A DNA stretch of 63,576 bases, the filler included, from Hausera hauseri (Eukaryota): assembly GCA_046269625.1 (NCBI GenBank). It is 10 parts of 10 records of this genome, joined end to end, with 100 filler letters (N's around TTAATTAATTAA, not from the genome) between each part and the next. Parts side by side here need not be neighbours in the genome. Positions count along the whole stretch, not along the records: positions 33,738 to 40,597 come from JBJURY010057774.1; 9 more parts are not named here. One strand, given 5' to 3'. A program made the translations under genes and the position numbers. This document shows positions 1 to 36,544 of this stretch, piece after piece. The notes under the pieces are model-generated. The model worked only from the letters and a program-made list of their open reading frames with translations, was not told the DNA's origin and searched no databases. Each line of letters begins with the position of its first letter. Position 1 is the first letter of the stretch.

Positions 1-336
1 TTTGGAAAACTTGATGGCAGAAACAGAGAGTGCAGTAATCTATCACATTAAAAATAAACCAACATAGGAATTGGATGAAAATGAATTGTCGATACTAGGC
101 ATAGTACCAGTAGACATCCCTCTCATAATGGAAATGTGTAAGATCGCGTTTAACGCACCAAAAGAATATGCGAATATAGGAATCCTCATAGCCTCACAAG
201 ATAAAAGGCGCTCCGAAATCTACCGATGTAAAAATAAAGTAACGTATGCGGAAAGCCAAGAAGTGAAAACATAACGGAAAAATGCATTTTAGAACTAGAC
301 GAATATAAGAAGAAAATAAACTACGTTAAAGGAGTA

Positions 337-2121
337 ATGGACTATATAAAAGATCCAGGTGATAAATTGAACGACGCTTACGAACGACTAGAGAATGTAA
401 TAAACGCAAAACCAGTGATAGATAACCAACTCAAAGAATGGATTGAATTGTTAGACAGATTAATGGATGTAACGCAATATCGTCTAAGGAAGTATTCAGA
501 ATCTGGACCAATATTAAAACAACAGCTGAAGGAAATACTACACGATCTAAATGTTTACAAAACAGAAGCAAAACTTTGAGTAGAATTTAACGCGCTATTG
601 AGACTAAGATTTATGAATAAAGATAAAGAAACGAAACTCACAGAAGAGTTGTATACAATGATCGAAGAAACAGAATTATCGACGAAACAGGAAAAGATCT
701 CCTCCTTATCGATGAGACTAAAAGGTATCCGCCTAGAAGGCATACGACACTTGATAACGAGGCCCATAGATGAAATATCCATAGTTGATCTATCGACGTT
801 GGATGTTTGCCCAATTTATCGATTCGCGTTAGAAGAAGTACTAAATTATCTACATCATCTTTTTAAGTGGGCATCAGATACCGACCAGAATGGTCACGCT
901 GAATTAATAGAAATAACCAAAGATCATCGCCTTACACCGGATGAAGCTAGATTCGTAAAGAGACTGATTGAAGAAATAGACCCAGATTCAAAAACTCTGA
1001 AGGAAATGCGCGAAATAATATCCCTATTATCGGCAATGGCAATAATAGATGACGATAAGACGCGACAATTGACAACCCAAGTTAAAGATATAGAAGAATT
1101 GCGAATTTGTACAAAGCAAAGAGCTACGAAGTTAGATGAATTAGGCAAAGAATTGGAGACTTATAAGAGTAAATACAAAATCAGGCAATCAGAGTTAATG
1201 AATAAAAGAGAATGTGTACAAAAATGGTTAACGGATGTGACGACCGAATTACCGGATTATGAAAGAAAAGGGTTATTTCCTACAGATGAATTAGGACCAC
1301 CATTAAAAACTATACAGCTTGCGTATGGAAATGGAACAGAGTTTCGCACTAACTTGATGAGGGAAATACGGCCAAGATTAAACGGAATCCGTGAAAATGC
1401 ACGAAGCACGCCTATGGAATTGTTAGATTGTGGTATTCCAGACGTTACAGATGACTCAGGATGGGATGCTTATTTAGAAGAATTATACAACCAAAATCCG
1501 AAGACTCCCATCCAACTTCAACGAACGGATACTTTTCCAATCGATCGACGATTTAATGTGGAAATGATATTAAATCCCTCACTAGCCGAGAGAGAATTAA
1601 TTGAGCAGATTAACGTCAACATGACGGAGAGCAGATTGAAACAATTGATCCCTACCTTGACAAAACTATTAAGCGAAAATACCGTTTATAGCTTAGTACC
1701 TAGATTACTGATAAAGAAATACGCTGAATTCTTAAAGGCTAATCCCGAAACGACGGTTAATGTAAAAATATCAGCTGAAGGGATGGAAGAAAAGGAAATT
1801 CAATGTACAACAGCGACATCGGTTAGAGCAGTAAAACAATGGATAGTACGGAACGGTGGAAAATATGAAGTAAATTACCGATTATATTTCCGAGGTAGAA
1901 TACTGGACGAACCCGAACTACTAATAGATGTTGGATTTATTTCAGAGGAAACAAATCGAATAGTGGCTATAATTACAGACGAACAAACAAAAGATGAGGC
2001 TACGAGAAGAGCAAGAGATGAACATTGCGTAGGACTCATTATGGGAGTCAGAGACACCTTGTCATGTATTTTGACTATCTCCATAGCGAGGAAGTTAAGG
2101 AACAATACGATCAGAATCTAG
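337..2121 (+). pseudogene. N-terminal polyprotein segment: helical/coiled-coil region plus ubiquitin-like domain (about 1753-1977)
   Basis: TVNVKISAEGMEEKEIQCTTATSVRAVKQWIVRNGGKYEVNYRLYFRGRILDEPELLIDVGFISEETNRIVAII aligns by eye with the ubiquitin pattern (RLIFAGKQLED...TLHLV). In-frame TGA at 577-579. Confidence 0.65.
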
Positions 2122-2696
2122 TACCGATGAGCGAACCACTACCAACTTCACCGAAACAGAAACGACCAGTGGGAAGGCCGAAAAAAATAAGAGTTGATAT
2201 TGACCAAAGCTCAGCTCTAATACGAGAACTAAGACAACTATCCATGCCCGCAATTAACTCCGAGAACGAAGAGTTAAACGAGTTGCTGAGATACATTATC
2301 AAAATAGTAAACTATTTGGGACCGAGAGACGAGATGTTAGACGAAAAGGAAAAAGCAATATATAATGCTGCGAGAATTATGAGAACATTTCGGATGAAAA
2401 TGAATAAAAGCGATTTATCCGACGAAGTTTTAATTGAGAAAATTTTGGTAGAGAATACTAAGGAAGAATTAAGGAAAATAATATTGTACTTGGCAGTTAA
2501 AACAAATCCCTTAAAGGAAAATGAATTCAATCGAACCATTGGATTGATCAGAAAAGCTGCTAAGAAGATACCTAGAGAAATAAATTGGTCCAAGCTATTT
2601 GGTGACGAAGATGGAAACAGGCCAGCCACTAGAATCGAAGATGTGGTAAGAAATTTAATACCAACTAACTCAGTGCGAGATAGTGAATCAAATTGG
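2025..2696 (+). pseudogene. Basic helical segment with an AT-hook motif (KRPVGRPKK, about 2160-2186), in frame with the glycoprotein
   Basis: ORF 2025..3404 contains a GRP core flanked by K/R and runs without a stop into the glycoprotein signal sequence. Confidence 0.55.
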
Positions 2697-4510
2697 ATGA
2701 TTAAACTGATAACTCTTATGATGCTAATTAGACAGCTCGGTGCAATCACAGTATACGACTGCGATAAGTTTAAGGTTGGACAAAGATATTCCTTAATGGA
2801 TTTGGAACTTTGCGAAGATGCCCGACCTCATAAGTTAGTAACTATCGAAAAGAAGTACTTTTTATATCAGCAACGCGAATTAATCGCAATTGACGGGATA
2901 GAATGCATGTTGCGACGATCACGAAGTATTTTTCACTGCGGAAACATCCACGGACATTCATCGATAGTAAAACCGACGACCCCACTAATTCCTATGGATT
3001 TAGATAGACAACAGTGTAAACAGGCTAAAGAAACCGGAAGATTGAGATGGGATGGAATGGAGTTAGAAACCCAGCCAGGAAAAGTAATTCGAGTATATAA
3101 AGTAGCAATCAGAAAACTGGATATGCACACCGGATACTGTAAAGGAGGTGAATACAATACCGGAAAAGGAAGAGAATCAGGAATAGTAGTGGTCGATTTC
3201 TATGAAACAAAAATAAGGAACCAAAAGATGATGTTCCATAGTATTACAAAAACATATACCGAAAACCAGAAGTACCATATCCAAGATGGTGTCTGTACTT
3301 TCAGGAACTCGATGGTCATTTGGACTCCACCACCTATGAACGATTGTAACTTTATTAAAATAAAGGAAATAAATTTTAACGAAACCCCAGGAAAAGGTAC
3401 GTAGAGACATTCGACAATAATGTCAGACCAAGGAAGGACGTTGCTGAACAATCTACACCCACGATATTGATATCCGAGGACCACGGATTGAAATTCATTA
3501 AGAAACAAATGCTCTCTCGATGCAACGTAGTAATGTATGCCACTAACTACGAAGCATTCTTTGTGGCAGAGGCCGCAATAACCACCTTCACTTTGGAAAC
3601 ACAAGATGTAAGAATAGAGATGACTTCTTCTACTATAAAGGAAAAATTGTACTAGCAGAATTATATCACAAAATGATCGTAAATGATTGTAAATCGGATA
3701 TGGAAATCATGAGAACTAAACTAGCCTTAATCTATGCGAATCCAAAACTAGCATCGCCCGTAATTCCAATGAAAGAAGGTATTTTCGGAAGAGTTACCGG
3801 AGAAGTACTGTTGACCTACGAATGCGAAAGACGAGATGTATCTTTAAACGTGGAAGAAAAACGCTGTATTCAAGAATTGCCGGTCATATATCAAAACGTA
3901 CCCCGATTGTCTATGTCACTTACGAGAGTTTGCTAGAAAACGCGAAACAACCAACTATTTTGAAAGAATGCAAAGCGGGTTTAGGCGAACATATGTTTAA
4001 GAGAAGTGAGACAGATTGGATAAGCCTGCCAAATGGAGGAATGATAGCTACACCTGGCAAATTAACCGGAACAAACTTACTCAAAGGTATAACAGACGAG
4101 TAAATGTAGACACCGCGAGTTAATAGATCTACAGACCAAAAGAGATCGAAGCCTTTAGAAAATTTTTAGCTTTTCCTCGACAGCGCACGCATGAGCTAAA
4201 TAGAGCCATGTCGACTGTGATAGATGACACTCGCTACCATGCGAAGTGGGAATCCTTACTTGGTGTCAATCATTATCAAAGAGTCACCACAGAAATATTA
4301 TATAAAATTTGGGGAAGATTTTTAATTTTCGGACAAGCTGCATCAGGATTTTTAGCCATCTATTTCTTAGTACAACTCATAAAGGCCATAATTCAGTCCA
4401 TTATAAACGGCTACGAAATATTTACTTTAACTGGATTTTCATGTAAAATCTTAACGGCAATCATAAAGCCGTTTGGAAAACTTTTGAAGGCTTACGAAGA
4501 AAACAAATGA
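2697..4510 (+). pseudogene. Chuvirus (Jingchuvirales/Monjiviricetes)-type envelope glycoprotein, about 600 codons, disrupted
   Basis: Signal peptide MIKLITLMMLIRQLGA, then ITVYDC..YSLMDLELC, IECMLRRSRSIFHCGNIHGHSSIV, QCKQAKETG, GYCKGGEY, IWTPPPMNDC, CNVVMYATNY, DCKSDMEIMRTKLALIYANP, GIFGRVTGEVLLTYEC, CIQELPVIY, FLAFP, and C-terminal TM IWGRFLIFGQAASGFLAIYFLVQLIKAIIQSIINGYEIF. These match the order and spacing of chuviral G motifs as I recall them. Confidence 0.85.
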
Positions 4511-4614
4511 AATGCGACGTGGAGAGACACGTTGGTTATTATAATCGGAAACGGAAGAGGAAATCTATATTTTTATAAGCCAAAAAAACACAAAATCTCG
4601 GAAAAACAATTCAG

Positions 4615-7523
4615 ATGATGATGAGCCTAATGGAGGAGACACGGTCTCCAAGACGAGCAATCGTAAGGTGCTTAGGCCACCTTTGCCAATGCTGCATCCT
4701 TCGGCACCACAATACGAAAACAGCGATGGGATCTATAAATTCATATAGTTCGGAAATATATCGAAAGTTTTTTAGTTATGAAGAACCCTATGAAGGGACA
4801 AAACAGTACGGCGTGTTACGAAAAATGTACCGAATTAGGGAAAAATTCGAATTATGCCGTCAACCGGCAGATGATCGCAAGATATACCCCAAGGATTTTA
4901 CGAAGTATCTCTAATTATTCTTCCATAACCAAAGCAACCAAGAGTCGCTAATCAATACACCAGATCGAGATAATGAAAACAGTGCATATAACGGATTGTA
5001 TCCTATTGAGGAATTGAGACAAGTAGCCGAGAATAAAGCACCAGAAATTAGTATAAATGGTTACAAGATATCCGTCACTAAACAACCTAAGATAAATGAA
5101 GGTAGACCTTTCGTCAAAATTAGTATTAACGATTGGGAAGTTTACGCACTAGTAGATACCGGATCAGAGAGATCATTTATAAAGAACGGATCGATACCGA
5201 AAACGTTACGATGTCAATTACGACCACCACTTGCAACCGATCCCGGAAGTATAGGAGCTTTCGGACAAGAATCAAGACCGAAATTCAAGTGGAATCCTAA
5301 TCTTAAAATATTGGGACAGACTTTTCAACATGAATTTTCTATAATGGAATACTTAACAGATGACGTAGTATTAGGGTGTGATATATTAAGACGTCTACCA
5401 AACGTCGCGATAGACTTGAATACCTCAAAGTTAATCGAGCTCGGACCGATAAAAGGAATTAAGATTTATAAGGAAAGAGAATCCGGAGAAGTATGGATTC
5501 CAGTTGCTGAAAACATTCCGCCTAGAACGGAATTGTTGATATTTGCACAAATCTGTCAAGACGACGATATACCGGTATGCTTCGAACCAAAAGAAACGCT
5601 AAATCCGAATATAATCCTAAGCAATATATTAAGCCGAGTAGCATCAGGTCGAATACCTGTAAGAATAGTGAACAATACTCAGACTCCAGTGAAGTTATAT
5701 GCTAACACAACTCTAGGACATACTTACAAGGTACCAGCGATAACGGTTGAAGAGAAACCGTATAAGTACGCTGAATTTCCACCGCACGTTGATACGAAGT
5801 TTTCACCAGAAGCTTATTGCCAGTTTTATGAACTATTATGTCGATATAAATCAATTATTGCGAAAGACGAAGAAGACATTGGCCTAGCAAAGGCATTAAA
5901 ATTAACTATACATCTTAAGAAAAAGCCTGGTTCTAATGATGAAATTGATCTTGAGGAACAGAAAATGCCAAAATGATATCCGCCGCCGCATTCCCTAAGA
6001 CCGGAAATAACCAAGGAGGTAGAACGCATGTTACAGGCCGATATAATTCGACCAAGTTTTAGATCATAGTACTCACCTATTCTAATGGTAAAAAAGAAGG
6101 AAACCACAAAACATCGATTTTGTATCGATTACAGAGCATTAAATACTTTCATAATGAAAGATTCTTTTCCCCTACCATTCGTAAAAGAAGCTCTAGATAG
6201 ACTCTCAGGAGCAAAATGGTTTACTACTCTGGACTTACAATCCGGATATTGGCAAATAGAAATTGAGGATGAAGATCGTTATAAAACCGCGTTTTAAACG
6301 CATGATGGCATATACGAATTCAACGTTATGCCATTTGGAATTACCACTGGCCCAGCCATATTTACCAGGATGATGAATAAAATGTTAATGGGACTTGATC
6401 ATGCATTTGCGTACCTAGATGACGTAATGATTGGATCAAAAGACGAAAAGGAGCATCTGAAGGATATTGAGGACACTCTTATGAGATTAGAACAGGCCGG
6501 GTTGAAGCTAAACCCAAAGAAATGCAAATGGGCTCAAAATGCCGTATCCTACTTTGGTAATATCGTTGGCGAAGGAGGATCGAAACCAGATAAATCATTA
6601 CTGAATAAAATTTCTGACTGTATGGAACCGCAGAACCAAAAAGAACTGAGACATTGGTTAGGTCTATGTGGATATTATGTTACCTATGTACCGGATAACT
6701 CAAAAATCAACGCACCATTATACAGATTATTAAAAAAGGGAATATAATTGAAATGGACCGATGTTGAGCAAAAGTCATTCGATGAAATGAAGAAAATATT
6801 AACTAGCGAACTAGTATTAAGATATCATGATTTTAATTTACCGTTTATTATTAAAACAGATGCAAGTAAAGAAGGTATCGGATATGAATTAGCACAAAAG
6901 CGCGAAGAGGAAGAATTAGAACATCCAATCGCTTACGGAGGACGCTTTCTGAAGAAAGCAGAGAAAAATTACTTGGTGACAGAATTAGAAACGTTAGCAG
7001 TAAAAGAAGCCTTAAGGTATTTTAACGTATATGTATATGGACAGAAGATCATAATAGTTACCGATCATAAGGCAGTTACAAATTTAAAAGGACGCGCAAA
7101 TAACCCTACGTGTAGATTGAATAAATGGATTGAAGAAATATCGAGATACAATATCGAATTCAAATATAAACCTGGTGCAAAACACGTGGATGCAGATTCA
7201 CTGTCCAGATTGAAGACAAAGACAAGTGCAATCATGACAATGAGGAAAAATCAGCTTGAAGAATTAATCGATAGACAACTAACTCTAGCATCAGACAGAG
7301 CAATTAAGATTTCATACGAAGAGAAGAAGGATCGAGTCATCCAACAGATAACCGAATATGTCGAAACGGACGTAATACCAAAGGGGCATCAGTTAAAGAA
7401 ACATTTACAACGACATAGACATAAATATTGTGTCTCCGAAAACAAGGACAGTGAAAAAGTATTGTATTATGAACGAAAAGGAAGAAAGTTAGTAGTCATA
7501 CCCAAAATTCTGCGAACTGAGTG
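4615..7523 (+). pseudogene. pol: Ty3/gypsy pol: aspartic protease, dUTPase-like linker, RT, RNase H, start of integrase linker
   Basis: PR ALVDTGSERS; linker IPPRTE..IPVRIVNNTQTPVKLY; RT RFCIDYRALN, LDLQSGYWQ, MPFG, YLDD; RNase H TDAS, ELE, TDHK, ADSLSR. Several in-frame stops. Confidence 0.95.
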
Positions 7524-7623
7524 NNNNNNNNNNNNNNNNNNNNNNNNNNNNNNNNNNNNNNNNNNNNTTAATTAATTAANNNNNNNNNNNNNNNNNNNNN
7601 NNNNNNNNNNNNNNNNNNNNNNN
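7524..7623. other. Artificial contig spacer (N44-TTAATTAATTAA-N44, stops in all six frames)
   Basis: Identical 100-nt spacers at 7524, 13318, 24494, 29021, 33638, 40598, 46235, 52676 and 57859. Sequences on either side are not truly adjacent. Confidence 0.99.
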
Positions 7624-12816: not shown

Positions 12817-13664
12817 TAGTGTGAGTGAAACAGGACGTCATCTGGCTTCAAGCAAAACAAAGCTATTATAGCAATAACCTTAGCAACAACTTGGCACAGC
12901 CTGAGGAAAAAAAAACTTCACAACATCCAGCTAAGTCAAGAACACTCTTCAGGGAACAGGCGGGTAAACATATCACTATCAGGGACTATCAGAAATAGAA
13001 AACAAGAGCCAGTCCAGAGAATACACTAGTCACAAACCATTCATAAGACTGAAGAAGAAAAGTTCAAATTTACAAACAGGATCTCTTCCAAGACACAAAC
13101 TGATATCAGCCAACAATCTATCAGAATGACTGGATAATGAAGCATAAATTAGACATTAGTTGTAAAGTAATAAACTCATTTCAACAACACCAACACAGGT
13201 GTGTTTACAGACTCATGCTGGGACAAAAAGACTGAACAGTGTCAGGGTATATAATCTACTCAGATTCAGGAAACTGCAGCATAGCTGGATGGACATCACA
13301 TCACTGCATAAAAGACANNNNNNNNNNNNNNNNNNNNNNNNNNNNNNNNNNNNNNNNNNNNTTAATTAATTAANNNNNNNNNNNNNNNNNNNNNNNNNNN
13401 NNNNNNNNNNNNNNNNNCGAAATTCGAATATCTGACTCGAGATCGCCATATTCGACTACCTATCTGTCCCCGCTAATTATAATATCGAATTTTGACTCCT
13501 AGGACCTAAAAATCTAAGGGAATTTTGCCTCAGTTGCACTTCCCATTTTTCCGCTTTTAATGTATGCACCCAATAAAAATCATGGAAGATGACTAGAAGA
13601 AAAAATGAAATAAAGACTAGGATATGTAAGTAAGAGTGCTTAACCGTGATAAATAGAGGTATAT

Positions 13665-16600: not shown

Positions 16601-17583
16601 GAAGGAATGATAAAGCAATGCCGCGGCATGCTATCCCATGCCGGAATAAAAAAGTAACACAATGCATAAGCAATAACTACGATATGACAAACATGAAAGA
16701 CACCATCAAGGAAGTGATTGGATGCTGTGAGGCATGTCAACGAAACAAGACCGTGACAATGGGTACAAAGGAAGAGACCCTGAAACTCTCGGCAAAAGAA
16801 CTATTTGAGAAGATCTACATTGACATTTGCGAACAGTTAAAAGAGACCTGGAGGAAGAAAAAATAGATATTGGCCATCATAGACCAGTTTAGCAGATATA
16901 TATATCACTATCGGCGATAGCAAAACAGGACAAAATAACAATAAAAGACACGGTGCTAAAGATATGGATTCTCAAATTCGGTGCACCAAAAAAGATACAC
17001 ACAGATTGCGGTAAAGCATTTGAATCTAACATATTTAGAGACATGACGGCGTCAATAAGCATCAAGATGTAATATTCAAGCCCACATCATCATAACACCA
17101 ATGGCATAGTGGAAAGGCAATTACGCACAATTAGCGAATATATAGGTGCGACTCTCCACGATCGACGACAAACCGATTGGGAAGAGATACTACCAAAAAT
17201 AGAATTCACATTGAATGCGACAGTTCAAAAAACAACAGGAAAGAGCCCAGTAGAAATAATATTTGGAAGAAAATACATAGCGAGAGATGTCATGGACAGA
17301 ATAAAACAAAACAATCGACAAAGAGTATCGACCCAGAAAGGATACCGGTAAAAAGAGTATTCCAGGTCGGCGTAAGTGTATTAATACAGCAAGAATCGGG
17401 AACAAAAGATAAAGACAAATATGAAGGGCCATGCGAAGTCATTGAGAGAAAACACGACCGACGATATATACTGCAACACCCGGATGACAGAATTCTGGAA
17501 AGAAATGTGGAAAACTGCGGAAATTCTTAAAGGAGAAAATGTAAGGAGGAATTGGAAGGAATATTCAATAAATAAATTTAATT
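13665..17583 (+). mobile_element. Ty3/gypsy LTR retrotransposon family B, copy 1 (5'-truncated; gag-PR-RT-RH-IN-PPT-partial LTR), decayed
   Basis: Gag knuckles CWSC and CFGCRKEGHINRNC; PR LLYTGA (decayed DTG); RT CLDFRQLN, MPFG, YLDD; RNase H DTDA, NADMLSR; IN H..H/CEAC, NGIVER. PPT AAAGGAGAAAA at 17529-17539; LTR starts TGT at 17540 and matches the LTR at 20448. Confidence 0.93.
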
Positions 17584-17589
17584 AAGTTA

Positions 17590-18150
17590 TAAAATAAAGT
17601 TATATTTTAGTTTGTATAGATTTATACGCAACATATGCATTCTGCATTGCAATGATTAATAAAACTCAAGAATCTTTAAGAGAAGCATATGAAAATATTT
17701 TTGAAAGTTATCAAAGAATTCCTGATTATATTTGGTTTGATAAAGAAAGCGGAATAAATCAAAATATTTTGATAATTTAAAAAGAACATAAAATTATGTC
17801 ACAATGAAAACGAAGGAAAATCAGCTTTTTCAGAGCGATTAATAAAGGCATTAACATGTAAAATATGGAAATATTTTGCATCAGTTGGAAATCAAAAATG
17901 GAATAAACTTTTATTACGTAGATAAATTAGTTGATGAATATAATAACCCAATTCATTAAAGTATTAAGGTAACACCTAAAAAGCTTCTTCAAATAATAAA
18001 TTAATGCAAGAGACAATACGTAAATATAATCATGAAAATAATAATTTAAAAGTAAAAGAAAAATTTGATATTTTGTAAGAGTGAAAATTTATAATTATAC
18101 AAATAAATTCGATAAAGTTTATATTACTAAACTTAGTAATGAAATATTCG
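17590..18150 (+). pseudogene. Polinton/Maverick-type rve integrase fragment
   Basis: Manual translation gives YILVCIDLYATYAFCIAMINKTQESLREAYENIFESYQRIPDYIWFDKESG, NEGKSAFSERLIKAL..KIWKYF..GNQKW..LVDEYNNPIH and KFDKVYITKLSNEIF, which match Polinton integrase motifs. Stops and frameshifts present. Confidence 0.75.
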
Positions 18151-18215
18151 CTTTTCATTTTTTCACATGATTGAATTTGTTGCATCTCCAGGTGTATAAA
18201 TGTTTTTTAATTTTG

Positions 18216-18560
18216 CTAACGGAAACCACACCCAAGTCTAGATTCAGCCACAAGTTTATCTGCTATTCTAAATTTTTGTTCGAATTTTTGATCAAGAACT
18301 TTGGTTTCAAATTTTATTAAGTCTTTAACGTGTATTTTTGTTCCAAATGCTCCAATATTCGTGATATCTTCTGTTGGTTTCAGTAACTTTTTCTTTAATA
18401 ATTCTGGCAATTGTTTGCGTGAAATCATTGAGGCTGAGGCTTCTGTATCAATTATAGCCGTGATAGGTTATCCATCTATTCAAATTACCGTTCTTGGTAT
18501 TACTTTATCACCTTCTATACTAGTTATCAGGGCTTCTTTTGGACCCGTTGAATAAAACGT
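18216..18560 (-). pseudogene. Retroelement aspartic protease fragment related to family A
   Basis: ITAIIDTEASASMIS (decayed DTG), IGAFG and LGC; the last two are shared with the contig-1 protease. Confidence 0.7.
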
Positions 18561-19084
18561 TAGTTTCATATGCTTTGAATTGTAATTTTCCATATCACTA
18601 GGATAATGTATATCTATGTAATAGTTAGAAGTGATGAATAACTGTTATTCTATTGGATATTTGTTCCATCTTTTTACTTTCAGAATATCTGCTAGCAAGG
18701 TTCTTCATTTCTTACTACGAATGGTGATTAAACTCCATGTTTTTTAGCATTCGAGAATGAATTGGTATGAGATTTTGCTTTCTTCATTCTTTTATCGAAG
18801 AACATCATCATCATTAGTCATTTTTATTCCTTTGTTTCCATGCGGCATCCTTCTTTATTAATAAAAAGCTAGCTAAGGATGGAATCAGGATATTATAATT
18901 TAAACCATTATTTAAATTTGCTGCATAATTTTTTAAAATTTCAGAAAATCAAGATTTCACAGTATATCACAAACATTTTGAAAATTTTATCAACAGAACC
19001 AATATTTATCAAGATAAATAAAAAATCATTAAAGTCTGATCTCATTTATATCGATTAAACTAAGACGATCATACAGAAATCAAT

Positions 19085-20308
19085 ATGAGTGAAACCTCAT
19101 GGATAAATTACGTCTGCCTTGTCCGCCTGGATAATAAAACAAAACACATTTTAGAATTTGTTTATCCTGAATGTATATTTATTACCGATCTCAGTAAAGA
19201 CCAAATAAGATTTCAATCTATCCCAGATGATCCTCGATTTGTTGACGAAAAAAAGACTTACCATTTCAAACTAAATCCTGAGAAAGATAAAGAATCTCAT
19301 ACTGTCTATATACAATGTCGACAAATTAACTTCAACGATGGTTTCAAATCAGTTTCAGTTTGTTTAGTGACAAATTTTCATTGCCACAATTTCTTCTATC
19401 ATCTCGTTGACATAGCAGCACATGCGTACTACCAATTTGGACTGGATGGGCTGATGAAATTTTATCATCAAACCCGCCAGTGGACAAATCCAAAATTGAC
19501 AGAAATGATTGTTTTACCAACAATTAGAATTGGTTTCAAATTTCTCTCAGTTAACAAACAAAAATATTCCGCAATTCAAAATAAAGAAAGAAATATCTGT
19601 TGGTTGAATCCTTATCACGTACCTTGTTGGCCAGAATTAGAAATAATGTATCCTCACCTACAAACATTATGGGAAATGGTGTTGCTTAACAAGCCCATTT
19701 TGGTTGCGTCCAATGATGAAACCTCTGTTACGAGATTTGTTGAGTTCCTTGGTTCAATAGTGGAACCATTGGATATAAGTAATAATGTGATACCATTGTC
19801 CAGTTCCTATGACGAATTATCGTGTGGCAATAAAATTATTGGAGTAACAAATCTCCATTTGAAATTATTTCTCAAAGACCACCCAAATGTTGTCGACCTA
19901 ACGAAAATGGATAAAGAACCCTCGTTATTTAAATGGATTGGATCATTATTTGATGATGGTCTATTTAAGTCCAATTATGTGCCGTATTTAGACCAAGACT
20001 CGATACTGATCGACAACATTGAGGAAGGATTGGCTAATCACAGAAATGAATATTTTCAATTGTTAATTATTGAAAATTATTTTAGAAAACTGACAAAAAA
20101 TTTTCTCGATAAATTGGACCTATCCATAAAAATGATGAATTGGGGTAAAAAGACCGTTAATTTCAGTTCGGATTATTTCTTTGGCTGTAAAGATGTGAAC
20201 AAAATGCCAACTGAAACGGGAATTTCGGGCAATTGGAAAGAACTTTATTCGGAATTTTTTAATTCTGAAAATTTTCAAATTTTTTTCAATAAAACTCTTG
20301 GAAAATAA
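19085..20308 (+). CDS. DENND6: DENN domain-containing protein 6 (FAM116-like Rab GEF), intronless and highly divergent
   Basis: Intact 407-aa ORF. Motifs WINYVCLV..LEFVYP, HLQTLWEMVLLNKPILV, IIGVTN, YFRKLTKNF and GNWKELYSEFFNSENF follow DENND6A/B in order. Confidence 0.85.
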   Translation: MSETSWINYVCLVRLDNKTKHILEFVYPECIFITDLSKDQIRFQSIPDDPRFVDEKKTYHFKLNPEKDKESHTVYIQCRQINFNDGFKSVSVCLVTNFHCHNFFYHLVDIAAHAYYQFGLDGLMKFYHQTRQWTNPKLTEMIVLPTIRIGFKFLSVNKQKYSAIQNKERNICWLNPYHVPCWPELEIMYPHLQTLWEMVLLNKPILVASNDETSVTRFVEFLGSIVEPLDISNNVIPLSSSYDELSCGNKIIGVTNLHLKLFLKDHPNVVDLTKMDKEPSLFKWIGSLFDDGLFKSNYVPYLDQDSILIDNIEEGLANHRNEYFQLLIIENYFRKLTKNFLDKLDLSIKMMNWGKKTVNFSSDYFFGCKDVNKMPTETGISGNWKELYSEFFNSENFQIFFNKTLGK

Positions 20309-20447
20309 AATTTGATGTTTATATTCGAGTTTATTATGTCATATAGCGATAAAATGTGACTTTTTATTTTAGTAGTAATATTTTAAGTTTCACAGATTTA
20401 ATTGTATAAATTTTGCATTTCATTTACAATTTATCAATTTTGTCCAG

Positions 20448-20619
20448 TGTGAGGAGGAATTGAAAGGAATATTCAATAAATAAATATAATTCAATAAACA
20501 GCCAAGTGAAAGTTAGGAAATTCAGAAAAGAAGGAAAACAAGACACATTTCCCGAGTTGAGGAGATAATTGTTATATAAACTTTTATAATAAATTTTTTG
20601 TGGATAATTTTATTTTACA
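20448..20619 (+). repeat. 5' LTR of family B copy 2 (3' boundary approximate)
   Basis: Starts TGTGAGGAGGAATTGAAAGGAATATTCAATAAATAAA, matching the post-PPT sequence at 17540. Candidate ACA end at 20619; gag ATG at 20669. Confidence 0.65.
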
Positions 20620-20668
20620 ATCATCAAGTGACGTTGAGGTTCGGATGGTAGAGACGCGATCTACTAAC

Positions 20669-22586
20669 ATGGCGACCAACGCTTCAAGAGACTTCCTTGA
20701 GAAGAAATTGATGCACAAAGAATTTCAGAAAGGTGACAACGTGGAAACCTTTATTTGAAAATGCTAGAGATACTTCGACTTAATAAAGATGTCGGAGACG
20801 GACCGCGAATCCGCGGTCCTGTGCCTGTTGGCGGACGAAACACAGGAAAAATACCATCTGATGAATCAGAATGTTTAACGGTACCAAAACCGGTTGAGAA
20901 AAGCCTTTGCAAAACCCACAACGCTGTGCGGTGATCTGTGCGAGGCCTTGGACCACAGAATGAGGGGGCAGAACCAGCAGCCTACTTCAACAAAACCGAA
21001 CAACTGGCGACGAGCATCCTTAGCCACAAAATAACACTGGAAACGCTAACATAAGAATTGATGATGCACTGTTGTGACGATCCGGAGATGAGAAAGGAAA
21101 TCTACCACAGTGACGAAAAAAGCGTAGCACAAATCAAAGCGAAAATACACGACGTTCATGAAGTGGTAATAAAGGCGTAAGAAATAAATACAGTGAGAGA
21201 ATACACTAAAGATGGTCGACGCAGTTATCGGGATGTGGTGGTGCACAAATTTGACAAACCAAGACAAGAAAGGAGATTTCAAACCACACAATACGCAGGC
21301 AAAGAGGATAATGAAATGCTGGTCGTGCCAGAAAGATAGGCATACAAGCCGGACATGCAACCTACAACAAGTACCAAGATGCGTTGGTTGCGGAAAGGTC
21401 ACATTAACAGGAATTGCCCGGAAAGGAAACCCATAATATGCTATGGATGCGGTCAGCAAGGAAACATAAGACGAAACTGCATAAACATAAAATGCAACAG
21501 ATGTCACAATAGAGGGCACAGGGAAGAAAAATTCTATAGAAAATTTGACAAGAACAGAAGCAGACAGAATACGTATACCGACAATTTCAAACGTGCGGGG
21601 TATGGTCAGAAAAGGTATGGAGAGAGGTGAACTGCAGACACGTATTCGTTGCAAATATTGACGAAGACTGTGAAGAATCAATGACAGATAGCTTTGACAC
21701 AAGTGGAGCTAGTCGGGGCCTTATATTAAACAACTCCAAAGGCTCCAAAAATATTCAAAGGAATGTACAAGGTTTTGAAGAAATGAAGGAAAGAACAGAG
21801 GAAAAGGTATAAAGGTTTATAAAAAAGGAGACGTTTGGGGACATAAACGAAGAAGTACGATTTACAGAAAGTCAAAATGAGCGACCTCATGAAGATAGGA
21901 TTTTTACCATGGAAGGACTGAAGGAAAAAATATCACGTACAATAAACTACAAGGACGGCTAGGTATAAAAAATAAAGATACAAGATAGATAGGAAGACTG
22001 CCTATTGGGCACAGGGGCACGGGTGAACGTGATCAGTAGGAAGATTTTTGAAAGATTGGCAGATATCCGGCTGGAGAAATCATATATCATACTCCGTTGT
22101 GCAAATGGTAGGCCCTAGATTGCATGGGTGAACTGCCAGTAAATGTGAAACTCAAGGGTGTACAGAAGCGCGTAACTTTCATAGTAGTGACAGACATATC
22201 ACCGGAAATAATAGGAGGAATGGAACTACAAAAGACTTTTGGAATGGAATTATGTTGACGACAGAAAGGTGGGGAAGAATAAAGGTATAATATAAGCAAC
22301 TTAGAAGCAAAATTTGTTCGACAAGTGACGAATGAAGAACGATTCAAAAGGGTGAAGGAGATTCTGTGGATAAACGAAAACTCAGTCGTATTGGACATAT
22401 TTCGGAAGAACCAAGAAGTCTTCATGGCGGACAATTGGCATATAGGCTGTACAAAATTGATCAAGCATAGAATAGACACAAAAGGTGCACCAATTAACAT
22501 TAAACCGCATAGATAACCAGTGAATCTAGAAAGTAAAATAGATGAGACCACTCAAAACCTGTGGGAAAACAATATCATCAAGAAAT
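20669..22586 (+). mobile_element. Family B copy 2: gag (four CCHC-type knuckles), PR and start of RT, decayed
   Basis: Gag start MATNASRDFLEKK...; from about 21060 onward collinear with copy 1 (13665-15210). Confidence 0.9.
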
Positions 22587-23964
22587 ATCGTCTCTCTGTG
22601 TACTTTACTTCAAAATATTATTTCTGCTGGACTCTTTCCTGTTGTTTTCTGAACTGTCGCATTCAACGTGAATTCTATTTATGGTAGTATCTCTTCCCAA
22701 TCGGTTCGTCGTCGATCGTGGAGAGTCGCACCTATATATTCTCTATTTATCCGGAATTGCCTTTCCACTATGCCATTGGTGTTGTGATGATACGGGCTGG
22801 TATAGCACATTTTGATGCCCATTGACTCCGTCATGTTTCTAAATACGTTAGATTCTCTTTCGATGCGCGGATTTTGACAATCCATGTCTTTAGCACGGTG
22901 CCTTCTATTGTTACTTCGTCCTGTTTTGCTATAGCCGACAGTGATATATATCTGCTAAATTGACCTTTGATGGCCAATATATACTTTTTCTTCCTCCAGG
23001 TTTCTTTTAACGATCCGCAAATGTCAATGTAGATCTTCTCGAATGGTTCGTTTGCAGAGAGTCTCAGGGTCTCTTCCTTCGTACCCGTTGTCACAGTCTT
23101 GTTTCGTTGATATGCCTCACAATGTCCAATGACTTCTTTGACTGTGTCTTTCATGTTTGTCATATCGTAGTTATTGCTTATATATTTTGTTAATTTTTCT
23201 ATTTCGGCATGGGACGGAATGACGTGGCATTGCTATATCATTTTATCCCTCTTATCTGTCGGTATCCATATCTTGCCTTTTCTTGTCTTCACTATGCCAT
23301 TTTCTACTAAGAATTTCCAATATTCTTTCTTTGAGGTGTCTTCTTTTATTTCTTCAATTTCTTTGCTGTCTTTTTGATATGGATATGCTTCTGTTGCTTC
23401 AACCGCTTTTATCATCCGAGTCTTAATCTTATGGGTTTTGGCCTCTTCGTTAGTTAACAAGCATTGTCTGTCACAATTGGTCCTGGATAACATGTCGGCC
23501 TTTGCGTGATTTGTTCCTTTTCTGTATTCCAGTCTTATGTCTAAACTTGATAGATATGCAGGTTTGGAATTGTGCTGTTATAGGCTTTTTTGTTTTCAAC
23601 TTCTCCCATACAAGTAATGATTAAAATGTTGACAGAAGTAGTATATAGCCAGCAACTCCTTCCGTGTAATGCAATAGCCCTTTTCGTTATTACTCATTCC
23701 GTGTGATCCGTATGCAATCACTCTTTTATGTCCGGTGCTGTCTTTTTGTGATAATACTGCTCTAATCGTATCAAAGCTAGGATCGGTATCCAGAATGAAT
23801 TACTTTTTGAAGTCTGGGAACCCTAGTATTGGTGGAGATGCCAAAGCCATCTTTATTGCTTCAAATGCTTTGTTACAAGTCTCGGTTCATATCAGTTTTT
23901 TGTTGTTCAGTCCGCACATCTGTTCTAATGTCTTAGCTTTTGTGGTATACCCTTAGATCAATTT
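22587..23964 (-). mobile_element. Inverted family B block (RNase H-integrase)
   Basis: Reverse complement matches about 15840-17290 of copy 1 (e.g. MTNMKDTVKEVIGHCEA, HHNTNGIVERQF). Confidence 0.9.
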
Positions 23965-24493
23965 TTCCTTTCTGCTGCAGTAGCCAAACAAACTTTTTGT
24001 GACAAAACAGGCAATGCAGTTTGTTCATCAACTATTTGAATTAGAATTGTATCCTGCATTGGACATTGCAATTGGTTGTCATTTGGACTTTCCATTAGTT
24101 TGAATTTAAGACAAACTGTAAAATTGTTTCATCCCAAAGCAAAGACACATTTTGTATCCATCATTTCCATTTGAATGAAATGATGGACTGTATTCACATT
24201 TCCAATTTTTATATTTGTCATCAATTCCTTCAATCCGCCAAGTCAAATCATTCTGTCCAGTCATTGCAACCATAAATTTGTCCATCCTAACTCGTCCATC
24301 AGTCTACAACAGTCAAATCAAACAACAAATAAACAAATCACCTCCATCTGCCTGTACTCGTCCATTTTCCACGTCAAATTAGCCACATCCATCTGCCATT
24401 TCCTCTCATCATTTTTTCCTTTCATTTCAATTTTCTCCATCCGACTCAACACAGTCGCCAATTTCCCCTACAAATTCCTGCATTATCGTCATC
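23965..24493 (-). pseudogene. TRAF-like protein (coiled coil plus MATH domain), frameshifted and cut by the gypsy block
   Basis: LTWRIEG..YSPSFHSNGNDGYKMCLC and, after a frameshift, VCLKFKLMESPNDNQLQCPMQDTILIQIVDEQ match TRAF MATH motifs. 38-nt GT-AG intron at 24304-24341. Confidence 0.7.
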
Positions 24494-31744: not shown

Positions 31745-33060
31745 TATTTTCTAAGACAAAATGCAAATTTACAAACTGGTGTCAGATAATGAAGATTGTG
31801 TCAAACGGGCAAATGTTCTTCTATCGAATTCCGGCATTACAATATTGGCTGATTTCGAATTCTCTCGACGATTCAAACCGTTTGATCGACAGTCACAGGT
31901 CATTCTTTTATATAATGTCAAGAAATGGGATAGTATTTCGATTTATGATTAAATATTTCTTAATCTCGGCAACCCGCGATGTTTTGATCCAGAAACGGAG
32001 TCGTACAGTCTGGAGGACGCCCGGGATATCGAATTTCGTATGAGTTTATTTAAAACGGCCGGAATACTACAGACTAAATACGAATGCCTTCAAACATTCC
32101 TCAGTGATGTCTATGCCATCGGATTTATACTTTCCAAATTAATCCTCGACGGAGTACTTTTGGTTTTCAACTGTTATAAAAACATCGTTCGTAAACGGTT
32201 TCAAGAAAATGATAATGCTGATACGTACTGGCGCATTTTGGTGTCGTGCAACAATCTTTTTTGGAGTTGCAATTTGTCTATAGTCTATGATTTGTCAAAA
32301 GTAAATAACCGGACAACAGGTATGATAGCATTCGCTATTATGTTGACTACATCTCTTGATGAAACTACTTTCAAGAATTTGCTACTACAAAATCATCTGG
32401 GAGTTACACTTACCAATTTCATTACTAATATTAATTATTGGTTTATTAACGACTGCAAATGGTATTTGGGCAAATTTACCGTTGATACACCTTTTACGCG
32501 GCCATACTTTTGCCATCTGTCTGCTAATGTTAAGGAAATTAAAGATTATGAAGTAAAAATGCATAAAGAACAGCGCATTATGGCATTTAACGAATGGGTT
32601 ATGGGTGATAATCTACTAGCGAATTTTGCGGAAGACGGTTCGGCTGTTTACTTTCGCCAGGAATTAATCGTATGCGCATGGGCCAGAATCTTATTCACGA
32701 ACTTATGGTGAAAGAACAATCGTCAAGACCTACAAAGGTACCTGACGTCAACTTCGATGCGTCTATGTTTCCCCCATTGCACGAATTACCTGGGAATCTT
32801 AATACTTACGACCTCAATCGACTTTTCTTTCGATATGGACCAGGGGAAAACGCTGACTCCCCTGGCAGAGGTTTGCATTACTTGTCGAGGTACGGTTTGT
32901 TACACTTTTGCGGTATATACAGTTATCATTCCGAAATGGAACAATCACCTTTACAAAACAACCTAAGTCACCCGCGGTGTAACAACCTGCGTGAGGGCAA
33001 TTGGCTTATCGATTTCATATGGCAGCGACTGGATGCTTGTGCGGGTTCGGCCGCCCGGAG
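31745..33060 (+). pseudogene. AGL: Glycogen debranching enzyme fragment with internal deletion
   Basis: MAFNEWVMGDNLLANFAEDGSAVYFRQELI and DLNRLFFR..NLSHPRCNNLREGNWLIDFIWQRL match two AGL blocks that are several hundred residues apart in the intact enzyme. Confidence 0.85.
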
Positions 33061-33737
33061 CTTGCCACGCCGGCGAGGTGATGCCACGGGCCGGGCTGTC
33101 GCTCAAGTGCCGTCCGAGCGCCGGGCTTGTTTGCGTCGTGCACCACAAAACCCACCCGCCGCTTATACCCCCTATGTTTCTTTTTATTTTTTAACTAATA
33201 ATAAACACACACATACACAGGCAAGAATACACCACATATAACACATATCCATTACCTCCTCGCTAATCTCTTAGGCACTTCCACCTTTTTCTCATCATAC
33301 AATGGCCTTATCATCCACACTTTTCACGATTTTCTTCCTTTCGCACAGACTTCTTTCTTTATCCAAATCAACATCAAAATTCTTGGCGGTATGAACTCGC
33401 CACCTTCAGTCGACACCACTGAAAAACCAAAATCAATTCCCATATTACTCTGCGCTGGCACAGTCATACCTTCAGGCCTCCATTTCGGCTACCACTGTAC
33501 TGAATTCTTTATTGATAGTCAAAATTCAAGCCAAACTGGCTTCAATTTCACCAGCTCTGGATGCATTCCGTTAACATTACTGAGCCTCTTCCAAAAGCCC
33601 ATAGTCTCTTCTACTATTTACCGAACTTAATTAAAACNNNNNNNNNNNNNNNNNNNNNNNNNNNNNNNNNNNNNNNNNNNNTTAATTAATTAANNNNNNN
33701 NNNNNNNNNNNNNNNNNNNNNNNNNNNNNNNNNNNNN

Positions 33738-33895
33738 CGATATCATAAATAATCGACCAATTTTTTAATTTATTGTTCACAATTTTATATCCTACTATAT
33801 AAATAATGGACTTGAATTCTAATCGTGTATAATTCTGTACAGCTTTTCAACTTATTCGTTTATCCACTTCTCAATTTATAACATTTCTCCTCCCT
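33738..33895 (-). repeat. Polypurine tract (33884-33895) and start of the 3' LTR (33883 to contig end)
   Basis: Minus strand reads AGGGAGGAGAAA immediately followed by TGTTATAAATTG. Confidence 0.75.
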
Positions 33896-34093
33896 GAATG
33901 GCACACTCGGATGTGCCCATTGCGTCAGGAGAGGTGCCGCGGCGACTGGGACTTCGTAATAATTCCATCCGCTGGCTTAGACTAGGTCCAGAACTGGTAC
34001 TTGACTGGCGTTCTCTGGGGTTCGGTTCCAACTCATAACTGTGATAGGGTTTAATTCTAACTATTCGGGTGTAACTACCATTTGAGTAGTACT

Positions 34094-34825
34094 TTAGGTC
34101 TGCGGCCTCAGCTCGGTATATACTGGACATGTGGTCTTTTCATTATCTAATGTCCATTTCTCTAAGCAATCTCTGCAATATTTATTACGGCAATCCGGGT
34201 TATTTAACACTACATATCCTTGTTTTAGGTTTGCCTCACATACGGGGCATTCGTTCTCCTCTTTCACCCAATTTTCTTCGTCTAGATCTACTCTTAACAT
34301 AATCTCAATAGGTTCTACTATTAACCCTTCTTCATCTTCATATAGATAGGCATAGATTCTTTTTTGTTTCGGATTCATTGAGCTTTTTTTGGGATCACAT
34401 CCAACGGCTATCAAGGTCCAATCGCTGATAGTGCCTCGATCTAAATCGGGAGCTTCACCAGTCGATCGGTATTTTTGATATTGTTTCTTTAACAGCAGCT
34501 TAACTGATTTATCCACGGGAACTATTACTTTACCATTTCGTTTGGGTTGAAATATTGGGGCAATATACTTCCCGATTTTGGGATTTTCTCAGACATACGT
34601 GTTCTCGTAAACTTGTCTGGCAGGCAATAGTTTGACAAAGAACATTGCTTCTTTGATCTTTTGTTTACTATAGTACTCGGTGGTTACTAACATCCTGGGG
34701 TAGTCTGCTGTTGTAGCATAATGGACATTTTCTATGGATGTCTTCTTTCGTAAGACATTTATTTCGGTTATTTGTTCTTCCTGCCTTTTTTGTTTTATTG
34801 TGGGTTTCTCAATGCGGGACTGCAT
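34094..34825 (-). pseudogene. Accessory ORF ending in a C3HC4-type RING finger (about 34118-34249)
   Basis: CPVC-x15-CRNKYCRDCLEKW..CPVY; H>N and C>Y are each single-base changes. 34589..34825 and 34094..34516 share a frame. Confidence 0.7.
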
Positions 34826-35250
34826 CTTTTGTTTTGCGGGTTCTGCTGTTGGTCGTTCTGGTTTTGAATTCTTTCTGCACGATCTTGGTTCTTCTTTTGA
34901 TCCTTTTTCGCCTCCTTTGCTTTTTTCTTGAACAAGTAACCGAAAAAGGACGCTTTCCTTTTTGTTGTTTTATCGCTTTCAGTCTCTGACTTTCTCTATT
35001 CCTCTTCTGTGTGTTTCCGAGGTATTTCTGGTATCTTAAATGAACTATTATTTGCTGTGGCACCATAACTTGTACCGGGTCTTTCATCGATGCGAGCTTT
35101 ATTTTCTGTCTTCACCGTTTTCAATCCCTGTATGGTTATTTGGTAGTTCCAGTCTGGTTTAATTTCAACATTCCTGGGTGGAGAATAAGGGCGAAAATGT
35201 TTGCGGTATCGTGTGCTGAGTCCTTCAAATTTTGGGAAGTTCCGTAAGTT

Positions 35251-36138
35251 TTATCTGGGGTTGGTGGGAGTCCATTCATGTTCCCACTTTAATCCAGCAT
35301 TTATATCCCTTAGATATTGGGATCTTTGACTTGCGGATAGTATTCTACTTATTTTTATGTTTTCCCCGGTCATGATTTCTACCATTAATTTGAAGCGGCC
35401 TTCCATGGTCAGTGGTATGTGACTCCTCTTCTCTTCAACCCTATTTCCCACTTGTCTCATAATAGTCGGGTGGGTTTCTATTTCTCTTACTCCGGCTATA
35501 TATGTTATCGGTATGGCCAATTTCCTCATTATCCTCTCTATTTGATACCCTATTAAGACGTATCCATAGAGGTATTGTATTACTTCTTGTTGTACTAATT
35601 TGAAATCCTTGCCATGATTCAGATGCTCTATTTTAATTCCGGTAATTTCTAAATGAGTTTCAAACACTTTTTGCCTTGGATTGATGATTTTTGAATAAAC
35701 TTCAGTCCCGTTTTCTTCTCGGATGGATATTTCGATGGCAATGTAATTCCCTTCTTCTCCTTCCCCATAATTTATCGCGACAATTCTGAGATTTCTCTCG
35801 TCAGCCACCAGTCTGAACGAGTGCAAATAGGTATCTTGTTCCTCTTTTGTAGGCCTTTGACTAAACTCTAAATGTGGTAACGATATAGGTATTTCTTCTT
35901 ATGTGGTTTCGATCATCATTTTTACTGGTAAGGCGGCCACGCGAAATTCCAATTCGTGATTTTTGAGGCTCCTACTATTGAATACAAAGGTACTAAACCG
36001 GCTTTGTCTCCCTTTGAAGGAATCCCATTTTTGATCCTTTAGCCGATAGTATATTTCCCCGTCCGCCAAATGCACATATTGTCTGTTCTTTATCTGCTTA
36101 ATACTGAGCGATTGGTTTAAAGGGGTATGCCCTAGCAT
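35251..36138 (-). pseudogene. DEDDh (REX4/ISG20/REXO-like) exonuclease domain
   Basis: IVAINYGE..EISIREENGTEVYSKIINP..VFETHLEITGIKIEHLNHGKDFKLVQQEVIQYLYGYVLIGYQI follows the REX4-like consensus. The ExoI acidic motif is degenerate. Confidence 0.75.
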
Positions 36139-36544
36139 ATTTATTCTCCCTCCATGCGTATAAATATACTGTTCTAGCCTCCTCGGTTGTCCCTTTTAAT
36201 CCATTCGGGATTTCACCAACTTTCCCGTATTGCACAAAACGTTTCCTTTGTAATTCCGTGTTTATTTGCCTATAGACGGCCTTTGAATTTGGGATCCGCA
36301 CTGTCACGTAGTTTTGTAGAAATTCGTCGATACTAAGTCGACTAGTCATTTCCTCCGTGTCGATTCTAAGTCGACTCGGAACTTCCTTGGCGTCGATGCT
36401 AATTCGGCTTGGTTCCATCTGGGTCTGAGTACTTACCAATCTGAACAAAAGAACATAAAGGTTAATCTTAAAACAAAGGATGGTTTTAAACCAAAACCAA
36501 TTCTTTGTTTGATGATAGAATAACCTGATCTGTAATTGTCAGGT

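Follow-up and report, generated by a model that had tools for sequence, protein, structure and literature searches.

Accessory ORFs of LTR retrotransposons

Accessory ORFs of the DEDD family are already known in LTR retrotransposons. Rotifer LTR elements and Terminons carry DEDDy exonuclease ORFs with intact residues (PMC5408684, PMC5718144 and PMC6338049, excerpts). Juno and Vesta of bdelloid rotifers (Rodriguez et al. 2017, PMC5408684, excerpts) are Gypsy-like elements with a DEDD-superfamily accessory ORF downstream of pol, an arrangement that is also found in the element of Hausera hauseri described here. In the same excerpts, ORF3 of Juno and Vesta is DEDDy or RNase D-like, and its invariant residues are intact (DEED). 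In contrast, the last ORF of the H. hauseri element, ORF4, is DEDDh or REX4-like and devoid of catalytic residues, is joined to a RING finger, and is located after a separate membrane-protein ORF. Its domain matches DEDDh proteins and lacks the acidic residues, which places it outside the DEDDy class with intact acidic residues that Juno and Vesta represent. The main text of PMC5408684 does not use the word RING.

The giant Gypsy elements of planarians, Burro/GYPSM1, resemble the present family in two respects: the sister element has an env gene before the protease, and the accessory domains are linked to ubiquitination (PMC6431247, excerpts, where Burro elements are described as rich in ubiquitination-related domains). 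This likeness is drawn from the published description and from an env seen in the sister contig only, the 5' end of the element itself being absent from the contigs. The domains listed for Burro in those excerpts are BIR, BCL2, MATH, ankyrin, SUMO-like and AIR1, without an exonuclease, and none of them was seen here. Burro elements also have env between gag and protease and polyproteins near 5000 amino acids long; the sister contig does not extend to gag. Burro is mentioned once, without domains, in excerpts of PMC11410931.

A DEDD fold without canonical catalysis is also kept as a binding module in PML-1, Maelstrom, EXD1 and Exuperantia. Unlike the element protein, these are products of host genes on the defence side, and the likeness is one of analogy. 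PML carries a RING finger, and PML-1 is a precedent for the presence of a RING and a DEDDh pseudo-exonuclease in one protein. The DEDDh pseudo-exonuclease of PML-1 is described under the name PXL (PMC13659232, excerpts). Nidovirus nsp14 ExoN and arenavirus NP share the same superfamily fold, but are active enzymes and give far weaker matches to the element domain than ISG20 does.

A search of titles and the beginnings of abstracts returned no report of a dead DEDDh ORF or a DEDDh-RING ORF in a retroelement; Repbase, supplements and subscription journals could hold one. What appears to be new is a DEDDh fold whose active site was lost before the family diversified, fused to a RING finger and encoded by the final ORF in a Gypsy lineage that bears env.

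A Ty3/Gypsy element and its sister

The window, meaning the whole stretch of DNA that was analysed, comprises 63,576 nucleotides of the H. hauseri assembly GCA_046269625.1. It consists of 10 contigs of 4.4-11 kb each, and features are not readable across the joins, each of which (7524-7623 and eight others) is composed of N44, a 12-base all-frame stop linker and N44. The pseudo-exonuclease domain lies on the minus strand of the contig at 33738-40597. The features of the element and of its sister are as follows.

39906..40481 and on to the contig edge at 40597, minus strand: reverse transcriptase (RT) of a broken Ty3/Gypsy-type pol (Pfam RVT_1, E 5.4e-36)
39297..39902, minus strand: RNase H of pol (Pfam RT_RNaseH_2, E 6.7e-33)
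38398..39030, minus strand: integrase zinc-binding and core domains (Pfam Integrase_H2C2, E 2.7e-7; rve, E 3.2e-12)
36542..37996, minus strand: ORF3, probable type I membrane protein with several in-frame stops (hydropathy peaks)
33876..36496, minus strand: ORF4, last accessory ORF, broken (tblastn of P0001 and P0002, in four and two colinear pieces)
33882..33895, minus strand: probable polypurine tract with TG directly after, overlapping the last ORF4 codons (purine-run scan)
33738..33883, minus strand: start of the probable 3' LTR, of which 146 bases lie within the contig (location behind the purine tract, TG start)
1..7523, plus strand, separate contig: sister element, 5' and middle part (pol 74% identical at the nucleotide level across 1584 bases)

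The initial annotation placed the locus inside an LTR retroelement. The retroelement part of this description is borne out by Pfam matches in the order RT, RNase H and integrase, which is that of Ty3/Gypsy elements; however, no LTR pair is visible in the contig, which spans only 33738-40597. The RT is 88% identical in amino acid sequence to that of the contig at 1-7523, where the sister element carries a mononegavirus-type fusion env (Pfam Monjiviricetes_fusion, PF24664, E 3.3e-18 and 1.4e-19) upstream of a protease (RVP, E 7.8e-7), RT and RNase H. From the extents of the two sister contigs, the element family is probably longer than 12 kb. Long coiled-coil-like ORFs without annotation occupy 580-2118 of the sister element.

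ORF3 (~480 codons) is in frame with the integrase tail. It includes a signal-like stretch near 37963, a cysteine-rich ectodomain, a Thr-rich stalk and one transmembrane-like stretch near 36706, the two outer stretches being read from hydropathy. Pfam gave no match up to E 1 and the PDB no credible one, and a by-eye impression of a fibronectin-III-like fold was unsupported. Given the upstream env of the sister element, ORF3 may be a second surface protein, separate from that env.

The end of ORF4 coincides with a purine tract of 12 bases that runs directly into TG, 146 bases from the contig edge. This is one of two sites on the minus strand of the contig where a purine run of at least 12 bases precedes TG. 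The site is probably the polypurine tract and the start of the 3' LTR, and we infer that ORF4 belongs to the retroelement. The possibility that ORF4 is a host gene adjoining the element was rejected because the ORF ends on the purine tract. Neither a second ORF4 copy nor a second LTR start occurs within the window.

Elsewhere in the window, two related Gypsy copies at 13418-24493 are 85-90% identical, with some parts in direct and others in inverted orientation relative to one another. A 414-codon frame between them (19064-20305) matches nothing in Pfam up to E 0.1 and is DENN-domain-like by eye only. Two fragments on the plus strand at 31953-33238 match glycogen debranching enzyme domains (E 4.1e-12 and 8.2e-20). 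Additional Gypsy-type pol fragments, together with a frame that weakly matches an integrase core (rva_4, E 0.0072), are found at 44543-46047, 47344-49491 and 60125-60799.

Organization of ORF4

The two top phmmer matches to the element domain are P0001 (870 amino acids, 42% identity, E 6.5e-45), which derives from a single ENA contig of 16,242 bases, and P0002 (333 amino acids, 46% identity), which ends inside the domain. By tblastn, P0001 is colinear with 36331-33879, and P0002 carries the match out to 36496. The gene extends from about 36500 to 33876, and upstream of about 36100 the relatives match another frame. The gene limits first proposed, 35251..36138, do not survive this comparison: the ATG at 36138 does not mark the beginning of the gene, the frame switches upstream of about 36100, and an in-frame stop is present at 35899-35901. 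Relative to the intact 870-amino-acid P0001, the H. hauseri copy carries at least four stops and three frame changes, and this broken copy makes no full protein. The following parts can be distinguished.

35902..36331, minus strand: N-terminal domain with no fold assigned, in two frames (40% and 50% identity to P0001)
35269..35793, minus strand: pseudo-exonuclease domain, DEDDh fold of the REX4/ISG20 type without catalytic residues (profile and PDB matches, alignment, model)
35761..35778, minus strand: ExoI-equivalent motif AINYGE (40-row alignment)
34900..35250, minus strand: basic, low-complexity, poorly conserved linker (32/116 residues identical to P0001, 28%)
34256..34684, minus strand: conserved pre-RING domain with no fold assigned (63/134 identical to P0001, 47%)
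34121..34255, minus strand: C3HC4-type RING finger, damaged here (Pfam zf-RING_2, E 7.5e-7; 29/44 identical to P0001)

P0001 has the layout of N-terminal domain, pseudo-exonuclease, basic linker (K/R-rich at 501-600), pre-RING domain, intact C3HC4 RING and short tail. The tails match at 12 of 40 positions, after which ORF4 and P0001 share their final five residues (5/5). This colinearity and the shared terminal residues suggest that P0001 and P0002 lie in retroelements as well, with P0001 presumably in the same place of its own element.

The RING is the best conserved part of ORF4 (66% identity to P0001). In P0001 it is intact, with eight zinc ligands at RING spacing and a match to zf-C3HC4 (PF00097, E 2.6e-7, 30.8 bits versus a cut-off of 21), whereas in the H. 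hauseri copy the His is replaced by Asn and the reading frame shifts at the last pair of ligands. The initial annotation overlooked this RING at the end of the same ORF, and its presence changes the likely function. The pseudo-exonuclease aligns with P0001 over all 177 of 177 residues, of which 69 are identical (39%), and about 330 residues separate it from the RING. In P0001 the domain occupies roughly residues 238-420. Neither the N-terminal domain nor the pre-RING domain has a Pfam match, and the N-terminal part of P0001 gave no usable Atlas match. At the start of ORF4 (about 36325-36412, minus strand), three imperfect 33-base tandem copies can be seen by eye, in frame.

Assignment to the DEDDh fold

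A stop-free frame of 215 amino acids (35254-35898, minus strand) holds the domain, and the unusual AINYGE motif previously noted in it is indeed present at 35761-35778 on the minus strand. The REX4/ISG20-like assignment made at that time is supported by phmmer matches in the PDB to ISG20L2 (E 0.0016) and ISG20 (E 0.003), followed by DnaQ (E 0.08). Profile matches are weak: TIGR00573 dnaq has an E of 4.3e-5 and a score far under its cut-off, and Pfam RNase_T reaches only E 0.041 (14.9 bits versus a cut-off of 24). All eight NCBIfam matches are to DnaQ-family or DnaQ-containing models or to one unnamed model. The domain is also found in P0001 and P0002.

A phmmer search of 1.84 billion proteins gave 79 matches, cellular REX4-like nucleases among them. 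An ExoI motif was intact by pattern in 54, another 9 were vertebrate-like and set aside, and 16 were without the motif. A cellular profile was built from 37 of the 54 screened ExoI-intact matches. The domain scores 63.4 bits against this profile versus 11.3 for the best of 1000 shuffles, a result that is circular because the rows were found with that query. Less circular are the scores of P0001 (35.8 versus 5.3) and P0002 (28.9 versus 5.0), again relative to the best of 1000 shuffles. In an Atlas feature search, the P0001 domain matched RNase_T clusters at 0.92 and 0.91 and arenavirus nucleoprotein at 0.90.

A structure model made with the 37 cellular rows has a pLDDT of 81, whereas the single-sequence fold was unusable (pLDDT 36.6). 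Its best match is ISG20 (Foldseek E 4.3e-10; Z 19.3, rmsd 2.4, 159 residues aligned), which is partly circular given the cellular rows. Matches to nidovirus nsp14 ExoN (Z 9.8) and arenavirus NP (Z 9.1) are lower. The element domain and REX4/ISG20 have in common a conserved Gly, the hydrophobic core and the R of the RDT motif, and of 49 columns that are conserved among the cellular rows, the element domain retains 18. Judged from sequence, the domain is a member of the DEDDh/DnaQ superfamily that is closest to REX4/ISG20, the match being real though weak.

The donor subfamily is seen differently by different queries. The single sequence favours REX4/ISG20, whereas a profile of the three element rows favours DnaQ/PolC, ranking bacterial DnaQ (E 1.2e-4) and PolC (E 8.9e-4) above ISG20L2 (E 8.5e-3). 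A quick tree of 46 rows was made from the 37 cellular sequences (of 54 screened), P0021, four tandem-repeat domains, the window copy, P0001, P0002 and P0008. The last four fall on one side of a long branch with an SH-aLRT of 97, a grouping that carries a long-branch warning and comes from a tree with no DnaQ rows. The branch from the element domains to their cellular relatives is very long (5.7), and the tree names no donor.

Loss of the catalytic site

All five catalytic positions, as well as several RNA contacts, are lost relative to REX4, ISG20 and ISG20L2 (PF00929). The ExoI Asp is D in 37 of 37 cellular rows and Asn in all three element rows. The three columns that follow, among them that of the ExoI Glu, which every cellular row possesses (37/37), are gaps in the element rows (3/3). 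ExoII and ExoIII are readable in the window copy and P0001 only, since P0002 stops before ExoII. In these two rows (2/2), the ExoII Asp is replaced by Ile and Met. The ExoIII His and Asp become N/P and R/K in the MAFFT register, whose exact placement is uncertain, or L/L and R/C when read by eye from the last helix of the model. In either register, the window copy and P0001 have no common His-Asp pair. For ISG20, each single alanine change at the five catalytic positions strongly impairs the enzyme (PMC10085690, excerpts).

The label exonuclease is thus a misnomer, as no canonical catalytic residue is present. The initial annotation had offered a catalytically dead module as a fallback and held that one decayed copy could not settle the matter. 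The residue loss in the window copy and its relatives supports that fallback, and the matter is now largely settled: intact P0001 and partial P0002 also lack catalytic residues, with ExoI absent from three of three sequences and ExoII and ExoIII from both that can be read. Because P0001 is an uninterrupted frame of 870 amino acids and is also without these residues, the loss is not the decay of one copy, and it occurred before the divergence of lineages whose present identity is about 40%. We consider it very probable that ORF4 encodes a family-wide pseudo-exonuclease fused to a RING. The best explanation of the sequences is that an env-bearing Ty3/Gypsy lineage acquired a DEDDh fold long ago, and that the fold then lost its metal site.

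Evidence for the family comes from three or four sequences, one of which (P0002) is truncated. A possible distant fourth member, P0008 (406 amino acids), is also without the acids and scores 16.5 bits against the cellular profile versus 7.3 for shuffles, but its membership is doubtful given a branch length of 9.2 and no RING match. A word-index search with the 215-amino-acid frame gave no homologue at E up to 0.01 among 117 candidates, and such searches with residues 50-430 of P0001 and with the three-row profile returned P0001 alone. Over the domain there are almost no indels, and 45 columns are invariant in the three element rows, several of them family-specific. In the C-terminal half of the domain, only 11-14 of 40 residues are identical to P0001.

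Unusual active sites were also encountered among the cellular-type sequences. P0021 (180 amino acids) is REX4-like, with Asn at the ExoI Asp position and the Glu kept. It groups with cellular rows, and its Asp-to-Asn change therefore arose independently. P0007 and P0019 (778 amino acids each) carry four tandem REX4-like domains from which most catalytic residues are apparently absent; these have no RNase_T Pfam match and group with cellular nucleases, not with the element domain.

Possible roles of the pseudo-exonuclease

Our preferred reading, to which we assign a little less than an even chance, is that the domain acts as a binding module, directing a RING E3 ligase towards a factor of the host defence. 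The architecture suggests that the RING would have E3 ubiquitin ligase activity. A host protein or ribonucleoprotein would be recognised by the dead nuclease fold, either by itself or together with the two fold-unassigned domains; most likely this target would be a factor of RNA decay or small-RNA silencing whose usual partner is a fold of this kind. The bound factor would then be ubiquitylated and the RNA of the element protected. The fold is kept with almost no indels, and the domain therefore probably binds something; the intact RING, as the best conserved part, favours a ligase recognition module. However, the margin by which the domain is better conserved than the linker is modest (39% versus 28%), and both the RING and the pre-RING domain are better conserved than the pseudo-exonuclease. 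The distance between domain and RING also means that the two may act independently.

One such independent activity would be RNA binding, in which the dead enzyme shields the 3' ends of element RNA or soaks up small RNAs as a silencing suppressor or nucleocapsid-like chaperone, via a new surface or the basic linker. The known pseudo-nucleases of the DEDD fold mostly bind nucleic acid, as described in excerpts for PXL (PMC13659232), Maelstrom and EXD1 (PMC5408684), which speaks against an adaptor and for this alternative. The basic clusters in the linker and the Atlas features that the P0001 domain shares with RNase_T and arenavirus nucleoprotein are also in favour of RNA binding. Arenavirus NP nonetheless stands low in the fold searches (Z 9.1 versus 19.3 for ISG20). 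Furthermore, the domain is neutral, with 24 K/R and 24 D/E each in the window copy and P0001; the medians for the 37 cellular domains are a net charge of +5 and a pI of 9.3. The RNA contacts of ISG20 are M14, R53 and H89 (PMC10085690, excerpts), and by eye these map in the element rows to a gap, H/Y/Y and Y/Y/F, respectively. Neutral charge and the loss of these contacts favour protein over RNA binding. RNA binding by the domain is accordingly uncertain, and we regard this alternative as rather unlikely, though it deserves weight.

The domain might instead be a passenger, i.e. a captured host nuclease gene that decays slowly without function while the RING alone, or nothing, is selected. The heavily broken ORF4 copy, the poor match of the C-terminal half of the domain and the very long branch to cellular relatives fit this idea, and rotifer accessory ORFs show no clear departure from neutrality in excerpts of PMC5408684. 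We give it a slim chance, however, given that the P0001 frame is open over 870 amino acids, that the domain has almost no indels at 39% identity, and that so many columns are invariant, several of them specific to the family. Some of those columns might alternatively form a new active site built from Asn43, Glu46, Glu56 and neighbouring polar residues: N43, E46, E48, E56, R60 and E66 are invariant in the three element rows and absent or rare in the 37 cellular rows, and an 'active site switch' has been hypothesised for MAEL (PMC2628886, excerpts). With three sequences at 40-50% identity, many invariant columns will occur by chance, and P0008, if it is a member, keeps none of N43, E46 and E56 by eye; a rewired nuclease thus seems very improbable.

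The initial annotation proposed that an active enzyme helps to maintain a very large RNA genome by nidovirus-like proofreading, or counters small-RNA silencing by degrading dsRNA like arenavirus NP. The DEDDh fold, the probable size of the element family and the active-looking DEDDy ORFs of rotifer LTR elements (PMC5408684, excerpts) would be in keeping with an active canonical DEDDh exonuclease whose odd motif reflects decay of one copy. Both proposals nevertheless need a D-E-D-D-h site, which is absent from the window copy and from intact P0001 (with ExoI also absent from P0002), and the domain is encoded outside pol, in one ORF with a RING. We consider an active enzyme of this kind extremely unlikely.

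Implications

The element provides no example of a proofreading retroelement. To our knowledge, few counter-defence proteins have been described for animal retroelements. A more specific form of the adaptor reading is that ORF4 encodes a counter-defence E3 ligase of large env-bearing animal retroelements, in which a dead mimic of an ISG20/REX4-type nuclease binds and destroys the RNA-decay or piRNA machinery. This full version is speculative and, on present evidence, unlikely. Because P0001 exists as an intact natural protein, its binding partners and ubiquitylation targets are directly testable. If the proposal is true, ORF4 would represent an anti-silencing ligase encoded by an animal retrotransposon, similar to the viral RING proteins that degrade restriction factors.
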